In this document: in pieces, positions 1 through 46,156 of the stretch | Layout: every line of letters starts with the position of its first letter | How positions within the stretch are numbered: the stretch's first letter is position 1 | Source of the DNA: Armatimonadota bacterium | GTDB lineage: Bacteria > Armatimonadota > Fimbriimonadia > Fimbriimonadales > GBS-DC | DNA: 64,000 bases | NCBI GenBank assembly: GCA_037445735.1 | Contig: JBBIJY010000010.1 | Span: forward strand, 3,664 to 67,663 | Direction: 5' to 3' | Position numbers and translations under genes: made by a program | The notes under the pieces: model-generated | What the model was told of the DNA's origin: nothing | The model's input: only the letters and a program-made list of their open reading frames with translations | The model's database searches: none

Positions 1-306
1 AGCTGGCGCGCCTGCAGGGTGGTGTCGCGCTCCTCCACCAGCTGCCAGCGACGGTCAGGAAACTGCGCTTTCAGGCGCGACAGCAGAGCGCGACTGCCTG
101 TGCCCGCGCCCAGCAGCAACTGCTGGGGAGCATACTGCTGAAGCCATTCGGGCAGGCGAGCCATCAGCTCGTCGATGGCAATCACCGCCCGCAGCAGCAC
201 CTGCGCGGCGTCGGGCAACTGCTCCTCGGACACAGGCTGATCGGGCAGCTCGGCAATCGCGACGCCTGCCTTCCGGGTGCCAGGGTCAATCGCCAGGTAG
301 CGCATG
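1..306 (-). CDS. Partial CDS running off the window start; N-terminus MRYLAIDPGTRKAGVAIAE resembles RuvX/YqgF-like pre-16S rRNA nuclease (Holliday junction resolvase-like)
   Basis: Minus-strand ATG at 304-306, 8 nt downstream of the thrC stop. The N-terminal motif matches the RuvX consensus M-R-x-L-G-[IL]-D-x-G-x-[KR]-x-x-G-[VI]-A-[IV]. Not in the ORF track because the ORF is open at the window edge. Confidence 0.3.
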
Positions 307-313
307 GTGGGCT

Positions 314-1393
314 TCACTTTCGGGTGCGCGGGCGCGGTTTCAGCCCCAGGGCGCGCACCACCGCGTTATAGCGTGGCGGCACGCGCAGCGGCTCACACGC
401 GCTGGCGAGCAGGGCAGTGTCAGGGTCTTTCAGCCCGTGCCCCGTGAGCGTGACGGTGATGGTCGCAGGCTGGGTGAAGTAGCCTGCTCGCGCCAGTTTG
501 AGCAGTCCGGCAATCGGCGCTGCGCTGGCAGGCTCCGCGAAGATACCCTCCAGCCGCGCCAGCAGCCGATACGCCTCCAGAATCTCCGCGTCGCTCACCT
601 TTTCGAACAGTCCGCCCGACTGCTGCTGCGCCTGCACCGCCGCCTGCCAGTTAGCAGGGTTGCCGATTCGGATGGCGGTCGCCAGCGTTTCAGGGCTGCA
701 AATCACACGGTTCTCCACGAGAGGCGCGGCGCCCGCCGCCTGAAAGCCCAGCATCTTCGGCAGGCGCGTGGTGCGACCCAGCGCGTGATATTCACAAAAC
801 CCCTGCCAGTATGCCGCGATGTTGCGGGCGTTGCCCACCGGGATTGCGTGATAGTCAGGCGCGTCGCCCAGCGCATCGCAAATCTCGAACGCGGCGGTCT
901 TCTGACCCTCCGCCCGATAGGGATTAATGGAGTTGACCAGCGTGATGGGATAGCGTTCGCTCAGCATGCACACCAGTTGCAACGCGGCGTCGAAGCTGCC
1001 CTCGATCTGGAGGACCTGGGCGCCGTGCATCAGTGCCTGCGTCAGCTTGCCCAGCGCGACCTTGCCGTGCGGCAGCAGCACAAAGCAGGGCAATCCCGCC
1101 CGCGCCGCGTAAGCCGCCGCCGACGCCGATGTGTTGCCCGTCGAAGCGCAAATCAGCGCCTGCGAGCCTTCCTCTAACGCTTTGGACACCGCGACGGTCA
1201 TGCCCCTATCTTTGAAGGAGCCAGTCGGGTTCGAGCCTTCCAGTTTCAGCCACAGGCGCGCTTCGGGATGGATCAGGCGTGCCAGGCGCGGCGCCTCCAC
1301 CAGCGGCGTGTCGCCCTCGTTTAGCGTTACAATCGGCGTGCGCTCCGTGATGGGCAGATACGCCCGATAACGCGCAATAATGCCCCCAGCCAT
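314..1393 (-). CDS. thrC: Threonine synthase (PLP-dependent, short Bacillus/archaeal type)
   Basis: 359 aa with the PLP-lysine motif [17 protein letters not shown] and the overall TrpB-fold pattern of threonine synthases. Confidence 0.85.
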
Positions 1394-1493
1394 AGACGCG
1401 CCGAATCATACCCGTCGGAACGCCCTCTCCCGAAGCAGGGTATAATCTTCACAGGGCAGGATGCCCTTGCCCCAATCGCCAGGAGACTGGCGG

Positions 1494-2405
1494 ATGATAA
1501 CTTTCTCGAACGGTGAGCGGGTGGAGTTTCTCACGGGCAGCGGCGCGCTGGGCTTCGACGGGCGCGGCTGGTGGTGGGAGTATCCCCTGCGCTGGGTGGG
1601 GCTGCTGAACCCGCGTGAGTTTGCTATTGTGGTCAAAACGCTCACGCTGCACCCGCGCCGGGGCAACCTGCGCGGGTACGCGCCCTGGCGCTGCGTGCGC
1701 CTCATTCCGGGCGGCACAGTGAACGCCGTCGGGCTGACCAACCCCGGCATCGAGTGGTGGCTCCGCGCCTGCTACCCCCGCATGCAACGGATGGGCTTGC
1801 AGACCATCGTGTCGGTGCATGCCGCAACGGTGGCGGAAGCGCAGCAGATGGCGCAGCTGCTAACTCCCCTGCGACTGACAGCGATTGAGCTGAACGCCTC
1901 CTGCCCGAATGTGCCGCACGATTCTGCCGTTGCACATGGGGTGGCAGTTGCCCGCGCGCTGCGCGAGGCGGGACATCCGCTGATTGTGAAGGTCGGCTAT
2001 GATCAGCCCTATGTGGAGCTGGCGCAGGCGCTGGAGGGCATCGCGGAGGCAATCCATGCGATTAACGCGGTGCCCTGGGGTGTGGTGTTTCCACAGCGCC
2101 GGTCGCCACTAACGCATCTGGGTGGCGGGGCGGTGTCAGGCGAGCCGATACGCCCCTTCGTGCGCGAGGCGGTCGCCCGATTGAGCCACGCCACCCGCCT
2201 GCCGATTATCGCAGGGGGCGGAATCTATACGCTGAACGATCTGGAGGAGCTGTGGGCGCTGGGCGCCCGCGCCTTCAGCATCGGCACGCTGTTTCTGCGA
2301 GTGCCGTGGCAACCCAATCGCCTCGTGCGCCAGTGGCGACAGTCGCACCCGTACGCCGAACCCGCTCAGGAGTCTGCCCCTACTCGCCCGCACTGCCAAA
2401 GTTGA
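1494..2405 (+). CDS. Dihydroorotate dehydrogenase family TIM-barrel protein (PyrD-like)
   Basis: Motifs NAVGLTNPG, ELNASCPN and PIIAGGGI match DHODH class-1 signatures; start taken at MITFSNG inside the tracked ORF 1461..2405. Confidence 0.55.
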   Translation: MITFSNGERVEFLTGSGALGFDGRGWWWEYPLRWVGLLNPREFAIVVKTLTLHPRRGNLRGYAPWRCVRLIPGGTVNAVGLTNPGIEWWLRACYPRMQRMGLQTIVSVHAATVAEAQQMAQLLTPLRLTAIELNASCPNVPHDSAVAHGVAVARALREAGHPLIVKVGYDQPYVELAQALEGIAEAIHAINAVPWGVVFPQRRSPLTHLGGGAVSGEPIRPFVREAVARLSHATRLPIIAGGGIYTLNDLEELWALGARAFSIGTLFLRVPWQPNRLVRQWRQSHPYAEPAQESAPTRPHCQS

Positions 2406-4089
2406 ACAGCACAATCAGCAGGTCGGCGTCGTCCACCGCACCGTCACCGTTCACATCTTCAGGCAAGCCATTGCCCGACTGCCCGAAAGCGAACAGCACC
2501 ATCAGCAAATCGGCGTCGTCGATCTGATTGTCGCGGTTCGCGTCGCCGTTGATGAGCGTCCAGTTGACGCTGGTATTGGGCGCAAGGGTGAGCGTTTGCC
2601 GTCGGGAGAGCCAGCCCGGCACCCGCACGCGCACCGACGCCGTGCCGCTCAGCGCGGTGGCGACGGTGTATTGACCGTTTGCTTGCAGCACGGTCGTGGT
2701 GGCGTCGGTCTGCTGACCGCTCTGAAAACTGAACTGCGCTGTCTTGCCTGCTGGATCGGGCAGGTAATCGCTCAGAATGATTCGCCCTGTTAAAAACGGC
2801 GGCGCCTGCACGCGCTGAATACCGACCGCAGGAGTGTTATCGCTGCCCTGATTGACCGTGCTGATGGCGTACAGGCTGGCGTCGGGCGCGTCGATCAGCA
2901 GTTCGGGCTGCTCGTCTGCTTGGCTCAACCCACCCAGCGCGAGCGCGCCCATCAGCGAGCCATCGGGGCGCCACCATTGCAGGAACGGCTTCCAGCGCTC
3001 GGTGTCGGTCAGCTGGGCAATCAGCAGGGTGCAGGCGTTCGCGCTCGTGTGGACGCCCGCGACGGCGCGATAGACGCCACTGAGCGATTGCGAACCCATC
3101 AGGTTGCCGTCCGCATCGCCCAGCACAATAGCTGTCCATCGCGCGCTGGACGATTCGGCGTTCCCGGCAATCAACCAGCCCCTGCCCAGCGCGGTCAGCA
3201 CATCAGGGATCGAGTCGCCCGGCGCGTTGCTGATGGGCAGTTGCCAGAGCAATGTGCCGTCGGCTGCCAGGTGCATCAGCAGAAGTCGTGCCTGCTGTGC
3301 CGATGACTCCCAGACTGTGCCCAGCAGGTAGATCGTGCCATCGCTTGCCTGCGCCGAGCGCTCGGCATAGAACGGCAACAACAATTCCTGTTGAACTGTG
3401 CCCGTGTCGCTGAGCCACTGCAGCAGCGTTTGATCCCAGCGCTGCAGGATGCCATCAGGATCGGGCACACGCGCCATCAGCAGGCTTATGGTCGCGTTCA
3501 GGCGCAGGATGCCCAGCGGGGCACGGCTCCATGTCAGCGTCTGCGCCGGCGCGAAAAGATTCTGGGCGAGCTGCGTGCCGTTGCCATCAAACAGCAGCCG
3601 CGCATAGCCCAGCCAGCCCGTGCCATAGGCATGAAGCACCTCCACCCCGTTCGGGCGAACAATCAGCCGACGAACCACATCGTACTCGCCCAGATTGACC
3701 ATCGCTGACCAGAGCATCGTGCCGTCCGCTGACCAGCGCTGCACATAAGCCAGCGAGTCTCTGTCGGCGCGGGTGATGGCTAAGTAGAAGGAGCTATCGG
3801 ATGCAGCGGCAATCGCTTCGGCGTTATAGGATTGCCCCGATTCGCTGATGGTGCGCGCCCAGAGCAGGTCGCCCTGCGGGGAGTATTTCAGCACAGCGAC
3901 GCCATAATGCCCCGCGTCCATAATGTAGCGGGCGGCAATCAGCAGATTGCCCTGCGAGTCGACGGTGGCGACCTGCGGCAGGCAACCCCGCGAGCCGGAG
4001 GGCACAAACAGTCGGCTCCAGAGAACGCTCTGCGCGAACCCACCCTGCACGAGCAATATCAGACAGACCAGCCCTGTGAGCGTGCGCAT
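2380..4089 (-). CDS. Secreted repeat (beta-propeller-like) protein with C-terminal tandem dockerin-like Ca-binding repeats
   Basis: Signal peptide MRTLTGLVCLILLVQGGFAQ. The C-terminus GDANRDNQIDDADLLMVLFAFG ... DVNGDGAVDDADLLIVLFNFG matches the dockerin type I duplicated D-x-N-x-D-x-x-(I/V)-D-x-x-D-L pattern. Confidence 0.6.
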   Translation of the reverse strand: MRTLTGLVCLILLVQGGFAQSVLWSRLFVPSGSRGCLPQVATVDSQGNLLIAARYIMDAGHYGVAVLKYSPQGDLLWARTISESGQSYNAEAIAAASDSSFYLAITRADRDSLAYVQRWSADGTMLWSAMVNLGEYDVVRRLIVRPNGVEVLHAYGTGWLGYARLLFDGNGTQLAQNLFAPAQTLTWSRAPLGILRLNATISLLMARVPDPDGILQRWDQTLLQWLSDTGTVQQELLLPFYAERSAQASDGTIYLLGTVWESSAQQARLLLMHLAADGTLLWQLPISNAPGDSIPDVLTALGRGWLIAGNAESSSARWTAIVLGDADGNLMGSQSLSGVYRAVAGVHTSANACTLLIAQLTDTERWKPFLQWWRPDGSLMGALALGGLSQADEQPELLIDAPDASLYAISTVNQGSDNTPAVGIQRVQAPPFLTGRIILSDYLPDPAGKTAQFSFQSGQQTDATTTVLQANGQYTVATALSGTASVRVRVPGWLSRRQTLTLAPNTSVNWTLINGDANRDNQIDDADLLMVLFAFGQSGNGLPEDVNGDGAVDDADLLIVLFNFGSAGE

Positions 4090-4098
4090 ACCATGCTA

Positions 4099-5124
4099 TT
4101 ATAGCCCAAGTTGGGTGGCAACCGCCCAGTAGCCCTCCGATTGCAGGATGCTGGCGATTCGCTCCGCATCGCTTTGCGCGGCGCACAATGCCCCCTGCAC
4201 CGCGCCGCTGCCACACAGCAGCACGCGAAGTGCCCCCAGCGACTCCATACGCGCCCGCAATCGCAGGAGAGGTTCCAGCGCGTCCAGCACCACCGCCTCG
4301 AAATCGTTATGCAGGAAAGGCACGAGCTGTTCGGGCGTCTGAATCGCGCCCTGCTGGATGGCTCGCGCTAAGGTTTCTGTTGGGGCGAATTGGCGCGTCC
4401 GTCTTAACGACTCAAGGCGACTGGATAGCTGCGTGTACGCCCATGCGGTGGAGACGCCCACATCGGGCGGTCGAGCCAGCACCCACTCGAAGGGCGGCAG
4501 CGCGGGCAACGGTTGCACCTGCTCGCCCCGCCCACCCACACGCGCGCACGCCCCACTCAAAAAGAAGGGCACATCGGAGCCAAGCTGCCGGGCGATTGCC
4601 AGCAACTCCATTTCAGCCCCCTCACCCGTACCCTCTCCCCCACTGGGGGAGAGGGCTGAATGAACTCCCTCTCCCCGCTGGGGAGAGGGTTGGGGTGAGG
4701 GGTTATTCGCATGCGCAAGATGGGAAGCCCCCTCACCCGTACCCTCTCCCCCACTGGGGGAGAGGGTTTTATGGGACCTTCGCTCCATAAAATAGCGCAC
4801 GATTGCGGCGGCGTCGCTACTGCCTCCGCCGAGACCTCCCTGCGGCGGAATGCGCTTGATCAGGCGCACATGCCAGCCTGATCGCGCCGTCGCGCCCACC
4901 TGCTCCAGCGCCCGCCAGACCAGATTGCGCTCATCGGTCGGCACGGCGAAGCCCTCCACCTCCAGCGCAATCGGCGGCTGGCGATTCGGGATGGGCGTCA
5001 GAATCAGCGTATCGTGCAGGCTCAGCGTGTGCATCACGCTCGCGATGGTGTGGTAGCCATCCTCGCGACGCTCCAGCACCTCCAGTGTGAGGTTGATCTT
5101 GGCAGGCGCGTGCAGCTCAATCAT
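4099..5124 (-). CDS. ispE: 4-diphosphocytidyl-2-C-methyl-D-erythritol kinase, carrying a ~55 aa in-frame insertion derived from palindromic repeats
   Basis: N-terminus [24 protein letters not shown] is diagnostic of IspE (GHMP kinase). The 341 aa length exceeds the typical ~285 aa because of the segment [13 protein letters not shown]...[24 protein letters not shown] encoded by the 4617-4766 repeats. Confidence 0.85.
4617..4766. repeat. Three adjacent copies of a GC-rich nested palindromic element (CCCTCACCC-gta-CCCTCTCCCCC-act-GGGGGAGAGGG; CCCTCTCCCC-gct-GGGGAGAGGG-tt-GGGGTGAGGG) inside ispE
   Basis: Copies at 4617-4655 and 4728-4766 are identical; 4667-4702 is the complementary half. Related copies occur at 31008, 35353, 37275 and 48706. 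Confidence 0.85.
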
Positions 5125-6896
5125 TCTTCATCCAGCACAACCCGGATGTGCAGCTCGCGCAGCTGCTCCTCGCTCACGGGCGACGGCGCACCGAACATCA
5201 CATCGACCATCGCCGTGTTCTTGGGAAAGGCAATCACATTCCGAATCGTTTCGTCGCCCGATAGCAACATCACGAGGCGGTCGATGCCGGGCGCGATTCC
5301 ACCGTGCGGCGGTGCGCCATACTCGAACGCCTCCAGCAGATGCCCGAACCGCTCTTTGATCTCCTCATCGCTGTAGCCCAGCAGGTGAAAGATTTTGTCC
5401 TGCAGGTCGCGCCGATGGATACGGATGCTGCCGCTGGCAAGCTCGTTGCCGTTGCAGACCAGATCATAGCACTGGGCGCGAACCCTGCCCGGATCGGTGT
5501 CCAGCAGGGGGATGTCCTCCTCGCGCGGTGCGGTGAAGGGATGATGCGTCGGGTCCCAGCGGTTCTCCTTCTCGTTCCACTCCAGCAGGGGGAAGTCGAG
5601 AATCCATGCAAACGCCAGGAGGTCGGGGTCGGCGAGTTGCAGGCGTTCGCCCATCTGCTGGCGCAGGCGTCCAAGCGCATGGTTCGCAACGGCAGGCTGG
5701 TCAGCGACGATGCCAATCAGGTCGCCCTCTTTCGCGCCTGTGCGCTGGAGGATGCCCTGCAGCTCCTCTTCGCTCAAAAACTTGGCGATGGGCGAGCGGA
5801 TGCCTTCGGGCGTGAGCGCAATCGGAGCCAGCCCCTTCGCGCCGTACTGCTTCACAAACTCGCTCAGCTCGTCCCACTCCCGGCGCGAGTAGCCCGCACA
5901 GCCCGGGATGGCAATTGCCTTCACCACCCCGCCCGCTTCGATCACCGCGCGGAACGCCTGAAAGCCTGTCCCGCGCACCACATCAGTGAGATCGACCAGC
6001 TCCATGCCGAAGCGCAGGTCTGGCTTGTCCGTGCCGTAGCGTGCCATCGCCTCGTCGTAAGTGAGGCGCGGGAACGGTTTCAGCACGCGCTTCCCGGTGC
6101 AGTTCTCCACGATGCCGATAAACAGCTCCTCGATCAGGTTCAAAATATCGTCGCGCTCCACGAACGACATCTCCAGATCGAGCTGGGTGAACTCTGGCTG
6201 GCGGTCGGCGCGGGGGTCTTCGTCGCGGAAGCAGCGGGCAATCTGGAAGTAGCGCTCCACGCCCGCCACCATCAGCAGCTGCTTGAGTTGCTGGGGCGAC
6301 TGGGGCAGCGCGTAGAACTTGCCCGGATAGAGTCGGCTGGGCACGAGGTAGTCGCGGGCGCCTTCGGGCGTGCTCTTGATGAGGATGGGCGTCTCCACCT
6401 CCAGAAAGCCGCGCTCGGATAGAAAATCGCGAATATATTTGACCACGCGATGGCGCAGTTCGAGGCGGCGATACATCGCCGGGCGGCGCAGATCGAGATA
6501 GCGATACTTCAGGCGGAGGTTCTCGTCCACCTCCAGTCGCTCCTCATTCAGCGGGAAGGGCGGCGTGCGGGACGGGTTGAACACGGTGAGCGTATGCGCG
6601 AACACTTCGATCTCGCCGGTGGGCAGTTTGGGGTTCTCGGCGCCGGGTCGTCGGCGGCGCACCTCGCCTTCGATGCCGATGCAGCACTCCACGCGCAGGT
6701 CGCCCGCGCGCTCGTGCAGGGCGCGATCGATGGCGGGGTCGAACACCACCTGCACCAGCCCCGTGCGGTCGCGCATGTCGATAAAAATCAGCCCGCCCAG
6801 ATCGCGCACGCGATGCACCCAGCCGTTCAGGCGCACCGTCTGCCCCACATGCGCGGAACGCAACTCACCACAACAATGGGTTCGCTTCCAGCTCAT
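5121..6896 (-). CDS. aspS: Aspartyl-tRNA synthetase
   Basis: [46 protein letters not shown] aligns with the E. coli AspS N-terminus. Class II motifs [18 protein letters not shown] and [14 protein letters not shown] are present. The tracked ORF extends 98 codons further upstream, taken as spurious. The stop overlaps the ispE start by 4 nt. Confidence 0.95.
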
Positions 6897-7033
6897 CGCA
6901 CGAATGATACCCGCATGCGGGAGAAATGCGCTCCCCAATGCCGTGATGTGCGCGGAGGTAAGCCCCACGCCCCGGTTGCAGCGGCGGGCTGCTGGCAGCT
7001 CCACCGCTGCAACCGGTTGCGTACAGGGAACCG

Positions 7034-8080
7034 TTACTTCCTGGCTTCCAGAATCAAGTTGAACGGAGTTTCCGTCGCGCGGCGGAAGTGGCTGAAGCCT
7101 GCCTCCATAAATACTTCGCGAAGACGCTCCTCGCCTGCCTGCGCACCCAGCCCCAGTCCAACCTCCTGAGAGAGCGAACTCGGCGTGCAAACGAAAGTCG
7201 ACGCTGCGTAGAACATGCGCCCTACCGGGGTCAGGTTCTCCTCAAGCCGGTTGCCGGCGAACGGCTCCACAAGAAGCACTGTTCCGTCGGGTGCGAGCGC
7301 TTCATAGGCATGGCGCGCGGCACCCACAGGGTCGCCCATGTCGTGGAGACAGTCGAAGAAACAGATGAGGTCGTAACCACGAGCCGGATAGTCTTTAGCC
7401 GTGCTGACCTCGAATGTCACGCGGTCGGAGACGCCGCTTTCAGCCGCACGCGCACGCGCCGTCTCGATCGACGGGGCGTGAAAGTCGAACCCGAAGAAAC
7501 GCGAGCTGGGGTAAGCTTCCGCCATGATGATGGTCGATGCACCATGTCCGCAGCCAACATCGGCAACCGTCGCCCCTGCCTCAAGCTTGGGAACGACACC
7601 TTCAAGGGCAGGCAGCCATTCAGCCACCAGATGAGCGCGATAACCCGGTCTGAAGAAGCGCTCCGTGCCCATAAACAGACACGGATGGTGGTCGCCCCAT
7701 GACAGAGCGCCGTCGCCACGCATCGCGGCGACAATCTTGTCCTTGTCCAGAAACATGCTCGCCAGAACATAAGCGCCACCTGCGACATAGACAGGAGAAT
7801 CCCTGTCTGCCAGTGCCATCGCCTGCTCCTCTGGCAGACGGAACCGCCCGTCGGCGGTCTCAACATAGCCCGCTGCAGCCTGGGCGCAGAGCCACTCCCG
7901 CACCAGCCGCGGGTTGCAGTTCGTCCGCTCCGCGAGTTCCTCCGGGGTGAGAAATCCACTACCAGCCATCGCCTGGTACAATCCCAGCTCGTCACCGACA
8001 AGCACGGTCGCCCATGTTGCAGCGCCCCCCATGTCGGCCACTACCTTATCCATAAACGCATACAGCCTGGCTTCGTCCAT
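7034..8080 (-). CDS. Class I SAM-dependent methyltransferase with N-terminal winged-helix dimerisation domain (small-molecule O-MT / Rv2258c-like)
   Basis: SAM motif [13 protein letters not shown] and acidic motif [11 protein letters not shown]; start taken at MDEARLYAF. Confidence 0.7.
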
Positions 8081-8200
8081 CGTTGTTCCTCCTCTTGAGT
8101 GTTGTGGGAACGCACGCGGTTGCGTGTATCCCATGTAAAATTATACCCCACCAAAAGCCTTTTTGTCAAGATCGATCGCACATTTCAATTCGGGAACTTT

Positions 8201-9142
8201 TCATTTGAATCGCTGGTAAGCTGACCATCGCTGATGTTCCATGCTGCCTTGACCAGCCATACACCAGCTCCGTACAGGGCACCTTGTGCAGTCTGGACTC
8301 GCTTCAAAACACCATTTCATAGCAACATGGAACGCACCTTCATCCACAAACATCGGCACCACTTGAGGTACTGATTGCACTCTCTTCTCTATGGAGCCTC
8401 GCATGTTCTTGGCTACAATCACATAGGGACGCCCCGACTCGTAGACTACATCCTCTATCACGCCCGTCCGACAAAAGACTTTACCGACATGTCCATCTAC
8501 AACCATGAGTGTTTCTCGCATATCGATATCCAACTCCCGCCATTTTTCCACAAAAAGCCAGACCAGCCAGTTGGTCAGCATGCGAGCAGCTTTCGGATCA
8601 TTGCCAACCCACCCGCCCTCTAAAATAGAGTGTTCACGCAAAAATGCCCAAAGAGAGTTTACACCGTCCTGAAGCCGACTTCTGGACAGTTCATACAGAC
8701 CAGTACCGTCTGGCAGATTACGAACGAGAAAAATAAAAGTGGCGAATCTATATAGAAACAGCGACAGTGGTTTGATGCCACCCAATGCACCAACACGATA
8801 AAGCTCTCTGCCTTTTCGACCACCGATTTCTCGGAAGATATCCAGCACATCTCCGAATCGCTGCTCCACCGTATCAGGCTGGTATAGCAGTGTATCTCCA
8901 AATCTGGCGAACAGCTCGCGTACGAACTCTCGTATTTTGCCGGTGTCGCCTTGCTGATTGAGTAATGAACGCAAAAGCAGGTAACGAATGATGCTTTCTC
9001 TGTTTTCGATGGGTAGCTCCTCAGGCAGCGCCATGCTCTCGCGCCACTGCCCCTTCCATGTACGCCGACCAATCTGTTCCAGATGCGAAATTAACTCTTT
9101 TCGCTGATCAGGCTCGAGAGCTTCTTGTTTTACCTTTGGCAT
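8201..9142 (-). CDS. EndoIII-like HhH-GPD superfamily DNA glycosylase homolog with [4Fe-4S] cluster loop, translationally coupled to the upstream DNA methyltransferase
   Basis: LMVVDGHVGKVFCRTG matches the EndoIII catalytic-Asp segment AVDTHIFRVCNRTQ. The C-terminal CFEASPDCTRCPVRSWC has the exact C-x6-C-x2-C-x5-C Fe-S loop of Nth/MutY. An AGGAGG RBS precedes ATG 9142, which lies 35 nt inside the methyltransferase 3' end. Local GC is lower than the flanks. Confidence 0.65.
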   Translation of the reverse strand: MPKVKQEALEPDQRKELISHLEQIGRRTWKGQWRESMALPEELPIENRESIIRYLLLRSLLNQQGDTGKIREFVRELFARFGDTLLYQPDTVEQRFGDVLDIFREIGGRKGRELYRVGALGGIKPLSLFLYRFATFIFLVRNLPDGTGLYELSRSRLQDGVNSLWAFLREHSILEGGWVGNDPKAARMLTNWLVWLFVEKWRELDIDMRETLMVVDGHVGKVFCRTGVIEDVVYESGRPYVIVAKNMRGSIEKRVQSVPQVVPMFVDEGAFHVAMKWCFEASPDCTRCPVRSWCMAGQGSMEHQRWSAYQRFK

Positions 9143-10106
9143 TACGAGCTGATGACCTCCTCTTTTTGACCTGGTCGGAGAGCCAGGTACGCAGGCGTTG
9201 AGCATCATCGCGCACGGTATACTCAAATCTCACATCGTCCAGTAAAGAAGGGCTATCGACACCAACTTTTGCCCGAATGATGGGTAGCAGTTCGCTGTCG
9301 ATTTCGTAGCCGATGCATGAGCGTCCGAGGCGATACGCTACTCGCATCGTTGTGCCACTGCCCAGAAACGGGTCCAGCACCGTCTCGCCCTTATAGGAGA
9401 ACAACAGCATCAGACGCCGTACCAGCTCTTCTGGAAATGCCGCGATGCCTTCTTCCAGCCGTCCCTGCAACGGCAATACATTTGTTATCTGCCATACATT
9501 CAGGTACCATTTTTGTTTTTGATACTCAACTAGATCGATTCGGGACTCTTCACGCCTGCCGGCGCAGATGCGTTGATAATCGAAGCGACCTTTCTGGAAA
9601 ATCAGCACGCTCTCCTGTACATTATCCGGGTAGTAATAGAGCGGGTATGGATGCTGAAGAATCACCCCACTGCGACGGCTGATGCGGATATAACCCTCTG
9701 GTTTAAGCCAGACGATGCGATCCCGATAGCGGAAGCCCGCCTCCAGGAAGATTCGGGTCATGTCCGCAACCACAGGGTAGCGCTCGCCGTCGACAAGCAC
9801 ATCGTCGCAAACGATGCAGGCAACGCGCCCTTCCTCCAGCACACGCCAGATTTCCTGTGCCACGGCACGCATCGATTCGAGATAAGCCTCGTAGCTCTGG
9901 AACAGGTTGGGATAGTCAAATGGGGCATTGAAGTAGGGCGGGCTGGTGAGAACCATCTGCACCGACCGTTCGGGCAACTCTGTCATATTCCGCGCGTCGC
10001 CGAAAATCACGCGCAGAATGCAGCGCTCTGGTGCACCTGCCTCTGGGGTATCAGCGGCTCGGTTCGCCAGACCATTCTGAATTGGTCGCTTCGCTGGCAT
10101 GGTCAT
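9108..10106 (-). CDS. Beta-class DNA methyltransferase (N4-cytosine or N6-adenine; SPPY type)
   Basis: Motif IV VLTSPPYFNAPFD at about residue 55 precedes motif I VLDPFLGSGTT at about residue 245, the beta permutation. SPPY is typical of N4mC enzymes. Confidence 0.85.
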   Translation of the reverse strand: MTMPAKRPIQNGLANRAADTPEAGAPERCILRVIFGDARNMTELPERSVQMVLTSPPYFNAPFDYPNLFQSYEAYLESMRAVAQEIWRVLEEGRVACIVCDDVLVDGERYPVVADMTRIFLEAGFRYRDRIVWLKPEGYIRISRRSGVILQHPYPLYYYPDNVQESVLIFQKGRFDYQRICAGRREESRIDLVEYQKQKWYLNVWQITNVLPLQGRLEEGIAAFPEELVRRLMLLFSYKGETVLDPFLGSGTTMRVAYRLGRSCIGYEIDSELLPIIRAKVGVDSPSLLDDVRFEYTVRDDAQRLRTWLSDQVKKRRSSARNAKGKTRSSRA

Positions 10107-43965: not shown

Positions 43966-45062
43966 TCTTCCCGCTGAACCGCTGGCACAATCACTCCTCG
44001 TGTGTGTTGGAGTGCCCCGATGGCTCGCTGCTGGCGTGCTGGTACAGCGGTTCAGGCGAGCGCGAGGCGGACGATGTGCAGATTCTGGGCGCACGCTGGC
44101 GACACGGACGCTGGAGCAAGCCCTTTCTAATGGCAGATACGCCGAACTACCCCGATATCAACCCGATTCTGTTTTTTGACCCACGCGGGCGGCTGTGGCT
44201 GATGTGGGCGACCATTCTGAACCATCGCTGGGAGGGCGCCCTGCTCAAATATCGGGTGGCGATGCACGCGGGACAACGCGGTTGCCCGCCATGGTGCATC
44301 GGCGAGGTGTTCCATGTCTCACCCGATACAGGTTTTGTGCGAAAAGTTGAACAATGGATTGAGCGGATCAGCGCCGATGCCGAATCGCCAGACCCACCGA
44401 ATCGGAAAGCATATTTCCGACGGTTGCGTCAACTCTGTGCGGATGAACTGTCGCGGCAGCTGGGCTGGATGCCCCGCGTGCATCCGCTGATTATGGGCGA
44501 GCGCATCCTGCTGCCGCTCTATTCGGACGGCTTTAACTTCGCGCTGATTGCCATCAGCGAGGATGCGGGTTTCAGCTGGCAGCTGAGCGCGCCGCTGATC
44601 AGTATCGGCGGCATCCAGCCCAGCCTGATTCAGCGACGCGACGGCACACTGGTCGCCTACCTGCGCGATAACGGACCACCGCCCAACCGCATCATGACCG
44701 CTACCTCCAGCGACGGTGGCTATACATGGAGCGAGGTGGTCAAGACCGCGATCCCCAATCCTGGTTCCAGCGTGGAGGTGATTGCCCTGAATCCGGGCGA
44801 GTGGCTGATGGTCGCCAACGATACTGAGCGGGGGCGTCATCAGCTCGCTATTCTGCTCTCCACCGACGAAGGGCATACCTGGCAGCTCAAACGCTATCTG
44901 GAGCGCGATGAGAAGGGTGGAGGCAGCTACTCCTATCCGTCGGTCATTCAGGCGCGCGATGGCACCATCCATATCACCTACAGTTACGCTGTGCCCGCTC
45001 CCGAGGGTCGGTACAGCGCCATCAAGTGGGTACGATTCTCACGCGACTGGCTGGAGGCATGA
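43947..45062 (+). CDS. BNR/Asp-box repeat glycosyl hydrolase (sialidase-like beta-propeller)
   Basis: Three Asp-boxes S-x-D-x-G-x-T-W: SEDAGFSW, SSDGGYTW, STDEGHTW. Confidence 0.75.
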   Translation: MFESALIFPLNRWHNHSSCVLECPDGSLLACWYSGSGEREADDVQILGARWRHGRWSKPFLMADTPNYPDINPILFFDPRGRLWLMWATILNHRWEGALLKYRVAMHAGQRGCPPWCIGEVFHVSPDTGFVRKVEQWIERISADAESPDPPNRKAYFRRLRQLCADELSRQLGWMPRVHPLIMGERILLPLYSDGFNFALIAISEDAGFSWQLSAPLISIGGIQPSLIQRRDGTLVAYLRDNGPPPNRIMTATSSDGGYTWSEVVKTAIPNPGSSVEVIALNPGEWLMVANDTERGRHQLAILLSTDEGHTWQLKRYLERDEKGGGSYSYPSVIQARDGTIHITYSYAVPAPEGRYSAIKWVRFSRDWLEA

Positions 45063-46156
45063 AACCGCTCGATTCGCACTGGGTGGCAGAGGTTCGGCGG
45101 CGATTGCGGGAGTGGTTTCGGCAGGCGCACCGTGCTCTGCCCTGGCGGGCGACCCGCGATCCCTATCGCATCTGGGTCTCCGAGATTATGCTGCAGCAGA
45201 CGCAGGTGGCGACGGTCATCCCCTATTATGAGCGATTTATTCAGCGGTTCCCGACAGTGCAGGCGCTGGCGGAGGCGCCGCTGGCGGAGGTGCTGCGCTA
45301 CTGGGAGGGACTGGGCTACTATTCGCGGGCGCGGAACCTGCATCGCGCGGCACAGCAGATCGTTCAGCAGGGTGGTGAGCTGCCGCGTGAGGTGGCACGA
45401 CTGCGCGAGCTGCCTGGCATCGGCGCGTACACGGCGGGCGCGATTGCCAGCCTCGCTTTCAATCAGCCAGAGCCTGTGGTGGATGGCAATGTGGTGCGCG
45501 TGCTGGCGCGTCTGCTGTGGCTCAAAGGCGACGCGCGACGCCTGCGCACCCAGCCCGCAGTGTGGGCGCTCGCCCGCCAGCTGGTTGACCCCGATGATCC
45601 TGCCACCTTCAATCAGGCGTTGATGGAGCTGGGTTCCACAATTTGCCTGCCGGGTCAGCCACGCTGTGGTGAGTGTCCGCTGCAGGCGCTCTGTTCGGCA
45701 TATCAGCGTGGCGAGCCGACCGCCGTGCCCGAAACGGCTCCTGCCCGCCCCGCTATGCAGGTGATCGATGTGTCCACGCTCATCTGGCATGAAAGACGCC
45801 TGCTACTGGCTCAGCGCCCGAGCGAGGGACTGTGGGGCGGATTGTGGGAGTTCCCGCGTGCCACGCGCGCGGGACGCGAGACGCTGGAGACCATCGCCCA
45901 TCGCGCCGCGCACAAAGTGGGCGTGCAGGTGGAGCCGATCCGCCTGCTGGGGCATGTGCGCCATGCCGTGACCTATCATGCCATTCGGCTCTACGGCTAC
46001 CTCTGTCGGCTGGAGTCGGGCGAGCCACGCCCCTGCGGCGAGTACGCCGCGCTGCGCTGGGTCGCCCCTGACGAGCTGGACCAGTTCCCCCTCTCCGCCC
46101 CCCAGCGCCGCCTGGCGAAAATGTTTCTCAGCATGCCCGTTGCGTTCGAATTTTAA
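45059..46156 (+). CDS. mutY: A/G-specific adenine DNA glycosylase
   Basis: HhH-GPD core (LPGIGAYTAGAIASLAF...VVDGNVVRV), Fe-S loop CLPGQPRCGECPLQALC and C-terminal NUDIX-like domain (RLLLAQRPSEGLWGGLWEFP). Confidence 0.9.
   Translation: MKPLDSHWVAEVRRRLREWFRQAHRALPWRATRDPYRIWVSEIMLQQTQVATVIPYYERFIQRFPTVQALAEAPLAEVLRYWEGLGYYSRARNLHRAAQQIVQQGGELPREVARLRELPGIGAYTAGAIASLAFNQPEPVVDGNVVRVLARLLWLKGDARRLRTQPAVWALARQLVDPDDPATFNQALMELGSTICLPGQPRCGECPLQALCSAYQRGEPTAVPETAPARPAMQVIDVSTLIWHERRLLLAQRPSEGLWGGLWEFPRATRAGRETLETIAHRAAHKVGVQVEPIRLLGHVRHAVTYHAIRLYGYLCRLESGEPRPCGEYAALRWVAPDELDQFPLSAPQRRLAKMFLSMPVAFEF

Follow-up and report, generated by a model that had tools for sequence, protein, structure and literature searches.

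A stretch of 64,000 nucleotides from an Armatimonadota bacterium (contig JBBIJY010000010.1, positions 3,664 to 67,663 of the forward strand), hereafter the window, contains a compact two-gene cassette on its minus strand. One gene encodes a DNA methyltransferase. The other encodes a protein designated here as ORF-X, which has the predicted fold of endonuclease III (EndoIII) and the cysteine motif of a [4Fe-4S] cluster. The pair is probably a mobile type II restriction-modification cassette in which an HhH-GPD glycosylase/apurinic-apyrimidinic (AP) lyase acts as the restriction subunit. The features of the locus are as follows.

9108-10106, minus strand: methyltransferase open reading frame (ORF), 332 aa
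8201-9142, minus strand: ORF-X, 313 aa, with the ATG start at 9142
9161-9156, minus strand: Shine-Dalgarno sequence AGGAGG, 13 nt 5' of the ORF-X ATG
9108-9142, minus strand: overlap of the methyltransferase 3' end with the ORF-X 5' end, 35 nt, read from the sequence
8135-8200, minus strand: AT-rich spacer at the distal end of the cassette, 66 nt, 0.38 GC

The ATG of the methyltransferase shares bases with the stop codon of serC (ATGA at 10103-10106), whose product matches Aminotran_5 (1e-41). The other flank of the cassette is an S-adenosylmethionine (SAM)-dependent small-molecule methyltransferase with a winged helix-turn-helix. No conventional nuclease adjoins the pair in the window. The GC content is 0.496 for ORF-X and 0.547 for the methyltransferase against a window mean of 0.628, and the pair is the lowest-GC 1972-nt stretch of the window (0.517; standard deviation 0.029). 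The GC content at third codon positions (GC3) is 0.49 for ORF-X and 0.60 for the methyltransferase, compared with 0.80 for serC. The low GC and low GC3 are taken as a sign of acquisition. A canonical mutY is present separately at 45059-46156 (TIGR01084, 6.3e-100, over the cut-off). The layout given in a preliminary description of this DNA is thereby borne out: a beta-class methyltransferase between serC and a small-molecule methyltransferase, an overlap of about 35 nt with an ORF preceded by AGGAGG, a region AT-richer than its flanks, no adjacent conventional restriction nuclease, and a mutY elsewhere.

In the methyltransferase, the motif TSPPY (9933-9947) lies ahead of DPFLGSGTT (9348-9374), which is the motif order of the beta class. 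The protein matches the Pfam family N6_N4_Mtase (PF01555) with 1.8e-41 and the PADLOC model MTase_II PDLC03353 with 8.7e-73, and no match to C5-methyltransferase models was obtained. Judged from these motifs and matches, it is a type II beta-class DNA amino-methyltransferase, the modification subunit of the cassette, and its product is probably N4-methylcytosine (m4C). SPPY is the form of motif IV in the beta-class m4C enzymes for CTAG, namely M.MthZI, M.MjaI, M.BfaI and HVO_0794 (PMC5867850).

ORF-X carries a catalytic-Asp segment, VVDGHVGKVFCRTG, and a segment with the exact spacing C-x6-C-x2-C-x5-C, CFEASPDCTRCPVRSWC. Relatives of ORF-X were aligned in two sets: A1 with 53 sequences, and A3 with 27 sequences spanning all clades, including the distant ones. 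In both sets, at least 90% of the sequences share D216 and C278, and C285, C288 and C294 are invariant. In A3 (n = 27), K184, G217, R225 and G227 are also invariant, and Q63 is conserved in at least 90%. Because they are conserved throughout the family, the Asp and Cys motifs are not chance resemblances, a possibility that the preliminary description had left open. The residues considered below are located as follows.

8495-8497, minus strand: codon of the catalytic Asp, D216 in VVDGHV, paired with EndoIII D138 by hhalign and with MUTYH VVDGNV by phmmer
8261-8311, minus strand: putative [4Fe-4S] loop, C278-x6-C285-x2-C288-x5-C294, C-terminal and with the exact EndoIII/MutY spacing
8543-8629, minus strand: predicted helix-hairpin-helix (HhH), residues 172-200, from the secondary structure of the model
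8591-8593, minus strand: K184, candidate Schiff-base nucleophile, invariant in A3 and opening the second helix (184-200)
8951-8959, minus strand: N62-Q63-Q64, candidate DNA-intercalating wedge at the end of helix 48-62, compared with EndoIII SAQ41ATD

The triplet N62-Q63-Q64 is invariant in A1, and its sequence pattern together with the order of helices suggests that it corresponds to Gln41 of EndoIII.

Sequence models do not assign ORF-X to a known family. It has no match to PF00730 (HhH-GPD) at E <= 1, and none to the NCBIfam nth model or to any PADLOC model. Against Pfam EndIII_4Fe-2S the result was E = 0.07 with 13.9 bits, under the cut-off of 20.5 bits, and against NCBIfam mutY it was 22 bits, below the curated equivalog threshold of 286.5. 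The closest PDB sequence match is human MUTYH with E = 0.006, limited to residues 206-303; the match over the Asp and the Cys cluster was seen with the PDB sequences of both MUTYH and ROS1. When family profiles were compared with E. coli EndoIII (a sequence entered by hand) and with the MutY of the window using hhalign, only the segment from the Asp to the Cys cluster was aligned, at 35-60% probability; there, D216 pairs with EndoIII D138, and the four Cys pair with the cluster ligands of EndoIII and MutY. The segment preceding D216, RELDIDMRETLMVV, contains neither Gly nor Pro, and the Gly/Pro-rich loop is absent. The spacing from the HhH to the Asp is 32 residues, longer than the approximately 20 usual for HhH-GPD proteins.

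The structural model of ORF-X is an all-alpha fold of two domains, between which the active site lies, and comparison with known folds places it among the HhH-GPD proteins. The fold comparison scores were as follows.

QNG1/DUF2419: 15.7
Deinococcus EndoIII-3: 15.2
E. coli EndoIII: 14.8, with 203 of 211 residues aligned
Mig.MthI: 13.7
ROS1: 13.0
MutY: 12.8

The nearest unrelated fold in the comparison scored below 7. Since the sequence hidden Markov model tests fail, the HhH-GPD assignment rests on this fold comparison. The preliminary description had named ORF-X an EndoIII-like HhH-GPD homolog; the name is upheld by the fold, and the Pfam models gave it no backing. In the model, K184 starts the second helix of the predicted HhH and D216 starts the following helix, an arrangement that appears to be that of K120 and D138 in EndoIII. 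The equivalence of K184 and K120 comes from helix order only, as no alignment covers this segment. On the basis of the model, ORF-X is a divergent Fe-S member of HhH-GPD that has the residues expected of a bifunctional glycosylase/lyase, and the corresponding activity is predicted.

EndoIII, MutY, Mig and ROS1/DME have this fold in common with ORF-X, which is about 100 residues larger. Compared with EndoIII, ORF-X has an additional helix at the N-terminus and insertions at residues 100-170 and 228-247, and it lacks the Gly/Pro-rich loop. It differs from Nth and MutY in falling under every curated threshold and in never being a stand-alone housekeeping gene. The top-scoring QNG1/DUF2419 lacks an Fe-S cluster, and its substrate is a nucleotide rather than DNA, whereas ORF-X retains both the HhH for DNA binding and the cluster loop. 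A loop GALGGIKP (residues 117-125; 8768-8794) is invariant in the main clade and missing from the distant clade, and it is the sole low-confidence part of the model (predicted local distance difference test score of about 48). Its role may be that of a flexible element for contact with DNA or for specificity. In the distant clade (L039, L041-L048, P0269, P0270 and P0278), the Fe-S loop is interrupted by a Cys-rich insertion (A3 columns ~325-360), which is some 20-30 residues long, adds 3-4 Cys and could represent a second metal site or changed cluster ligands.

These residues bear on two functions other than restriction. ORF-X might clean up by-products of its partner by excising off-target alkylation such as 3-methylcytosine and 3-methyladenine; as a parallel, DNMTs reportedly co-evolve with ALKB2. 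The alkylbase glycosylases of this fold are, however, monofunctional and mostly without an Fe-S cluster, whereas ORF-X has the cluster and an invariant Lys, and its closest matches are EndoIII-type enzymes. This function is considered very improbable. The other function would be that of an eraser or a reader. An eraser would excise the methylated base as an epigenetic switch comparable to ROS1/DME, and a reader would be a non-catalytic DNA-binding regulator of the methyltransferase. The conserved Asp, Lys and Cys cluster point to catalysis, contrary to a reader or regulator. A mobile cassette that combines a writer with an eraser of one mark would be self-toxic or achieve nothing, and we know of no prokaryotic precedent for such a cassette. 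Either form of this explanation is considered very improbable.

The association of ORF-X with the methyltransferase was analyzed in an ORF-X-centred scan with one genome per species, which yielded 51 loci. The hosts include the bacterial groups Armatimonadota, Thermodesulfobacteriota, Kryptonia, Zixibacteria, WOR-3, Patescibacteria, Nitrospirota and Dehalococcoidia, and further Archaeoglobi, Methanobacteriota, Thermoplasmata, Thermoproteota, Bathyarchaeia, Jordarchaeia and Nitrososphaeria. An orthologous methyltransferase (55-79% identity) adjoins ORF-X in all 42 loci where the relevant flank is present, contrary to the general lack of linkage that would have spoken against the preliminary description. 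The other nine loci are cut by a contig end (five) or contain only short ORF-X remnants (four). No intact ORF-X without a neighboring methyltransferase was found. When all ORFs in the 51 loci were clustered, ORF-X and the methyltransferase orthologue were the two widely shared families; the remaining shared clusters are antisense shadow ORFs or are limited to a few loci, and no third conserved gene was recognized.

The arrangement of the two genes varies among clades. In the main clade, the methyltransferase lies upstream of ORF-X, and the two share a conserved overlap of about 20-40 nt. In the distant clade (~28% identity), the methyltransferase is found downstream of ORF-X at a distance of about 200 nt, and at one locus the two genes are divergent. 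Because the flanks of the pair are unrelated even in close relatives of the window organism, the methyltransferase and ORF-X are concluded to move as a unit. Adjacency and co-mobility of this kind are as in type II restriction-modification systems. In two Armatimonadota loci (L003 7169-7903 and L008 6958-7872), a second, distant N6_N4-type methyltransferase (28-34% identity) directly follows ORF-X.

Strict linkage by itself would fit a methylation-linked repair glycosylase too. Such an enzyme, similar to Vsr or Mig.MthI, would remove a mismatched or damaged base at the methylated site and so limit mutagenesis at high temperature. In the Mig.MthI/M.MthTI pair (plasmid pFV1) and the Vsr/Dcm pair, the methyltransferases are C5-cytosine enzymes, and their product turns into T on deamination, whereas the partner of ORF-X is an N6_N4 amino-methyltransferase with SPPY. 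Because the product of an amino-methyltransferase gives no T:G mismatch on deamination, the rationale of Vsr and Mig is missing here. Deamination yields uracil from N4-methylcytosine and hypoxanthine from N6-methyladenine, and since general glycosylases handle both, a site-linked repair enzyme would be without a clear purpose. Mig homologues, unlike ORF-X, are also found without methyltransferases. Furthermore, Mig and MutY do not have the HhH lysine, which is invariant in ORF-X; Mig has Tyr at this position. The substitution Y126K is reported to convert Mig to a lyase (PMC9945173). Taken with the evidence on the partner genes given below, a repair role is regarded as improbable.

The methyltransferase itself was used as the center of a second metagenome scan with alignment A2. 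It returned more than 593 relatives; the top 80 loci, whose methyltransferases have 57% identity or more to the window enzyme, were retained. The partner genes at these loci were as follows.

ORF-X: 39 loci
RE_A, a protein of about 350 aa directly downstream: 21 loci
RE_B, a protein of 310-357 aa: 9 loci
No partner: 11 loci, 8 of them cut by contig ends

One locus, L135, is counted under both ORF-X and RE_B, and the rows sum to 80, not 79. RE_A is a PD-(D/E)xK restriction nuclease with a PADLOC REase_II match, and its fold and motif agree with this label. RE_B shows a weaker match to another PADLOC restriction-enzyme model (1e-8 to 1e-11). Neither RE_A nor RE_B has a Pfam match, and neither was found on the plasmids searched. 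The RE_A and RE_B systems have methyltransferases 57-70% identical and the same two-gene layout as the ORF-X cassette, with the methyltransferase followed directly by its partner; they are conventional type II systems, for which the CTAG systems MjaI, MthZI and BfaI serve as comparison.

ORF-X, RE_A and RE_B are mutually exclusive except at L135, the only locus where ORF-X and a conventional restriction endonuclease occur together. This locus (1-8000) is a defence island. It contains an intact ORF-X beside a different, convergent 406-aa N6_N4 methyltransferase, and also RE_B paired with the orthologous methyltransferase. Remnants of ORF-X with frameshifts lie on the opposite strand, and an AIPR gene for abortive infection is present as well. 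On a neighbor-joining tree of the methyltransferases, the three partner types interleave, and the partners were therefore swapped several times within one methyltransferase orthogroup. It is typical of restriction-modification systems that isospecific methyltransferases go with unrelated restriction enzymes. ORF-X takes the place of the restriction gene next to the methyltransferase, and this result is considered decisive. A repair enzyme leaves the replacement of ORF-X by PD-(D/E)xK nucleases beside orthologous methyltransferases unexplained. The clean-up of alkylated bases likewise accounts neither for this replacement nor for the absence of solitary copies, and a regulator would not be expected at a position whose equivalent holds nucleases.

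The two genes also decay unequally. In the ORF-X-centred set, ORF-X is disrupted beside an intact methyltransferase in 10 of the 42 loci: three copies have a single nonsense codon, five are frameshifted, one has a 5' deletion, and one is degraded. Two of the three nonsense codons are TGG-to-TGA changes at invariant Trp codons. The opposite state, a disrupted methyltransferase with an intact ORF-X, was seen at one locus (L015, 401-2232), where the methyltransferase is split by two frameshifts on a contig with about 4x coverage. The difference of 10 versus 1 gives p ~0.01 in a two-sided sign test. Eight additional decayed copies of ORF-X were found in the methyltransferase-centred set. This pattern, with ORF-X lost first and no intact solitary copy found, is what a toxic restriction subunit would predict; it bears only indirectly on whether ORF-X is harmful without its methyltransferase, and L015 is a counter-example that may be an assembly error. 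The repair explanation leaves this 10-to-1 asymmetry unaccounted for.

The distal end of the cassette was compared with a related metagenome-assembled genome (MAG; L001, JBBIML010000006.1), which is 96.9% identical over 15150-8046 of the window. The shared stretch comprises hslU, serC, the methyltransferase, ORF-X, the spacer, and the initial 11 codons of the SAM-methyltransferase gene, after which the similarity ends. In the relative, the 11-codon remnant is followed directly by serA (2-Hacid_dh, PGDH_inter, ACT), and the order is serC, cassette, serA. Because the similarity stops after this remnant, a strain-level rearrangement or deletion breakpoint is located about 155 nt past ORF-X (window ~8046; L001 7096). 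The cassette was inspected for direct or inverted repeats at its flanks as marks of an insertion, and nothing convincing was found. The spacer holds a 12/12 sigma-70 consensus (TTGACA, 18 nt, TATAAT; 8169-8140, minus strand) pointing at the downstream SAM-methyltransferase gene, and the cassette end may supply a promoter for the neighboring host gene. The true start of that gene is probably the ATG at 8080, which is accompanied by AGGAGG, and not 8134.

The family of ORF-X was further surveyed in larger databases. A word-indexed search revealed 180 relatives, none of them with a Pfam domain, and a profile search against 1.84 billion cluster representatives gave 79 at E <= 1e-3, many of them fragments and all from uncultured thermophiles. 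No gradation of the family into the Nth or MutY families was seen in the latter search. Members with a name are annotated as "hypothetical protein" or generically as "endonuclease III" and come from MAGs of hot-spring or subsurface organisms; no cultured isolate was found among the family members. Four loci (L056-L059; P0323 and P0278) contain distant relatives with profile E-values of 3e-25 and 4e-16 that retain the Lys, Asp and Cys. These have no adjoining methyltransferase. The archaeal islands around them contain a TGT-family gene, DpdA (PADLOC 7e-82) in fusion with a DpdC-like segment, BrxD-like ATPases, and a PLD nuclease resembling DpdK/DrmC. The islands look like 7-deazaguanine DNA-modification and restriction islands.

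Word avoidance was analyzed over the whole window (1-64000) from observed counts and the counts expected under a second-order Markov model, with 6-mers summed over both strands. Among 4-mers, the observed and expected counts were 10 and 407 for GGCC, 4 and 128 for ACGT, 1 and 61 for CTAG, 138 and 327 for CCGG, and 205 and 425 for GATC. Among 6-mers, ACGCGT was observed 0 times against 45 expected, and GAGCTC 4 times against 54. Such extreme avoidance of palindromes suggests that several restriction systems have acted in this lineage over a long time. The Fervidibacter-type relatives (L002-L008) are also nearly devoid of GTAC, TCGA and AGCT. Word avoidance was considered as a pointer to the site of the cassette and rejected, since no word is consistently depleted across cassette hosts. 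The lone CTAG of the window is at 9530, inside the methyltransferase gene, which fits a recent arrival of the cassette that has not yet adopted the CTAG avoidance of its host.

Orphan orthologues of the methyltransferase (52-59% identity) are encoded by the Sulfolobus viruses STSV1 and STSV2 and the Sulfolobales viruses YNP1 and YNP2 (SYV1/2). They (L052, STSV1 67707-68600; L053, SYV2; H17-H24) are conserved through the target-recognition region, and neither ORF-X nor a restriction endonuclease was found near them. Their depositors labeled them as N4-cytosine or "MjaI" methylases. They probably serve in self-protection (anti-restriction) against systems of this specificity. The viral "MjaI" label, together with published work on CTAG enzymes (PMC5867850, PMC2615612), provides a lead to CTAG as a candidate recognition site.

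The restriction reading of the cassette is favored because PD-(D/E)xK nucleases share the position of ORF-X, because ORF-X decays more than its partner, and because the partner is an amino-methyltransferase. The methyltransferase would mark a specific short sequence of the host, most likely as N4-methylcytosine. ORF-X would be the restriction subunit, acting as an EndoIII-fold [4Fe-4S] DNA glycosylase and not as a phosphodiesterase. Where the site is unmethylated, a normal base would be flipped into the pocket of ORF-X and its N-glycosidic bond cleaved, with Asp216 assisting; the invariant Lys184 would then probably break the strand by beta-elimination as an AP lyase. Action on both strands would produce closely opposed abasic sites or nicks, by which incoming DNA would be destroyed. 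Methylation of the site would block ORF-X and thus spare the host. The preliminary description had offered restriction and Vsr-like repair as two possible roles; partner position and decay speak for the former, and the latter loses ground with a partner that is not a C5 enzyme.

Several observations weigh against this reading. The sequence models do not put ORF-X in HhH-GPD, with no PF00730 match and no Gly/Pro-rich loop, and the match of K184 to K120 comes from predicted helix order and not from an alignment. That strict linkage by itself would fit a Vsr-like partner too has been mentioned above. The assignment of RE_B is weaker, at E-values of only 1e-8 to 1e-11, and the REase_II models of PADLOC go back to sets in REBASE in which enzymes predicted only from adjacency are perhaps included, which makes the label alone soft. 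The locus with the split methyltransferase and the intact ORF-X should be lethal in an active system, unless it reflects an assembly error or another methyltransferase protects the host. No palindrome is consistently depleted across the hosts of ORF-X, RE_A or RE_B cassettes. No homologues of ORF-X were found on IMG/VR viral contigs, INPHARED phages or PLSDB plasmids. Finally, every family member is from an uncultured organism, and the enzymatic roles are predicted.

M.PabI, the methyltransferase partner of the restriction glycosylase R.PabI, is an adenine methyltransferase for GTAC, whereas the partner of ORF-X has SPPY and is probably an N4-cytosine enzyme. R.PabI as well as R.HpyAXII and R.CcoLI would have the logic proposed here in common with the predicted ORF-X system: a type II cassette in which a base is excised at an unmethylated site and the strand is cut by AP lyase activity. 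PabI-type systems are, like the ORF-X cassette, mobile and patchy in distribution, and they occur in hyperthermophiles (PMC10273834, PMC4357717, PMC5388411). The PabI/HALFPIPE fold is a half-pipe beta-sheet dimer, whereas ORF-X is an all-alpha HhH-GPD protein of two domains with a predicted [4Fe-4S] cluster. ORF-X has neither the half-pipe fold nor sequence homology to R.PabI, and it stands outside the PabI family because of the different fold. In the reviews consulted, among them ones from 2023 and 2025, the PabI/HALFPIPE superfamily comprises the only base-excising restriction enzymes (PMC10273834, PMC12707154). A literature search for HhH-GPD, endonuclease III or iron-sulfur restriction enzymes returned reports of the PabI family only; REBASE was not covered by this search. 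It is rather likely that the ORF-X cassette is a type II system that works like PabI with a non-homologous, EndoIII-fold base-excision restriction subunit.

A more far-reaching proposal combines two parts. ORF-X would found a second, structurally unrelated class of restriction glycosylases on the EndoIII Fe-S scaffold, excising an undamaged base at a specific unmethylated sequence, and the wider superfamily may be a restriction arm for chemically different DNA marks. The second part is suggested because the relatives that keep the Lys, Asp and Cys sit in DpdA/TGT 7-deazaguanine islands. The two parts together are only a tentative possibility.

If ORF-X acts as proposed, restriction by base excision would have evolved more than once, and the second base-excising family would use the most common scaffold of DNA-repair glycosylases. 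A repair fold regarded as a reader of lesions would have been adapted to sense an ordinary DNA sequence and whether it is methylated, and it would become testable how an HhH-GPD pocket could discriminate an undamaged base. Should the excised base be the one protected by the SPPY methyltransferase, ORF-X would be a natural sequence-specific cytosine glycosylase. Glycosylase/lyases of this kind, being thermostable, sequence-specific and methylation-sensitive, would also find use as reagents.

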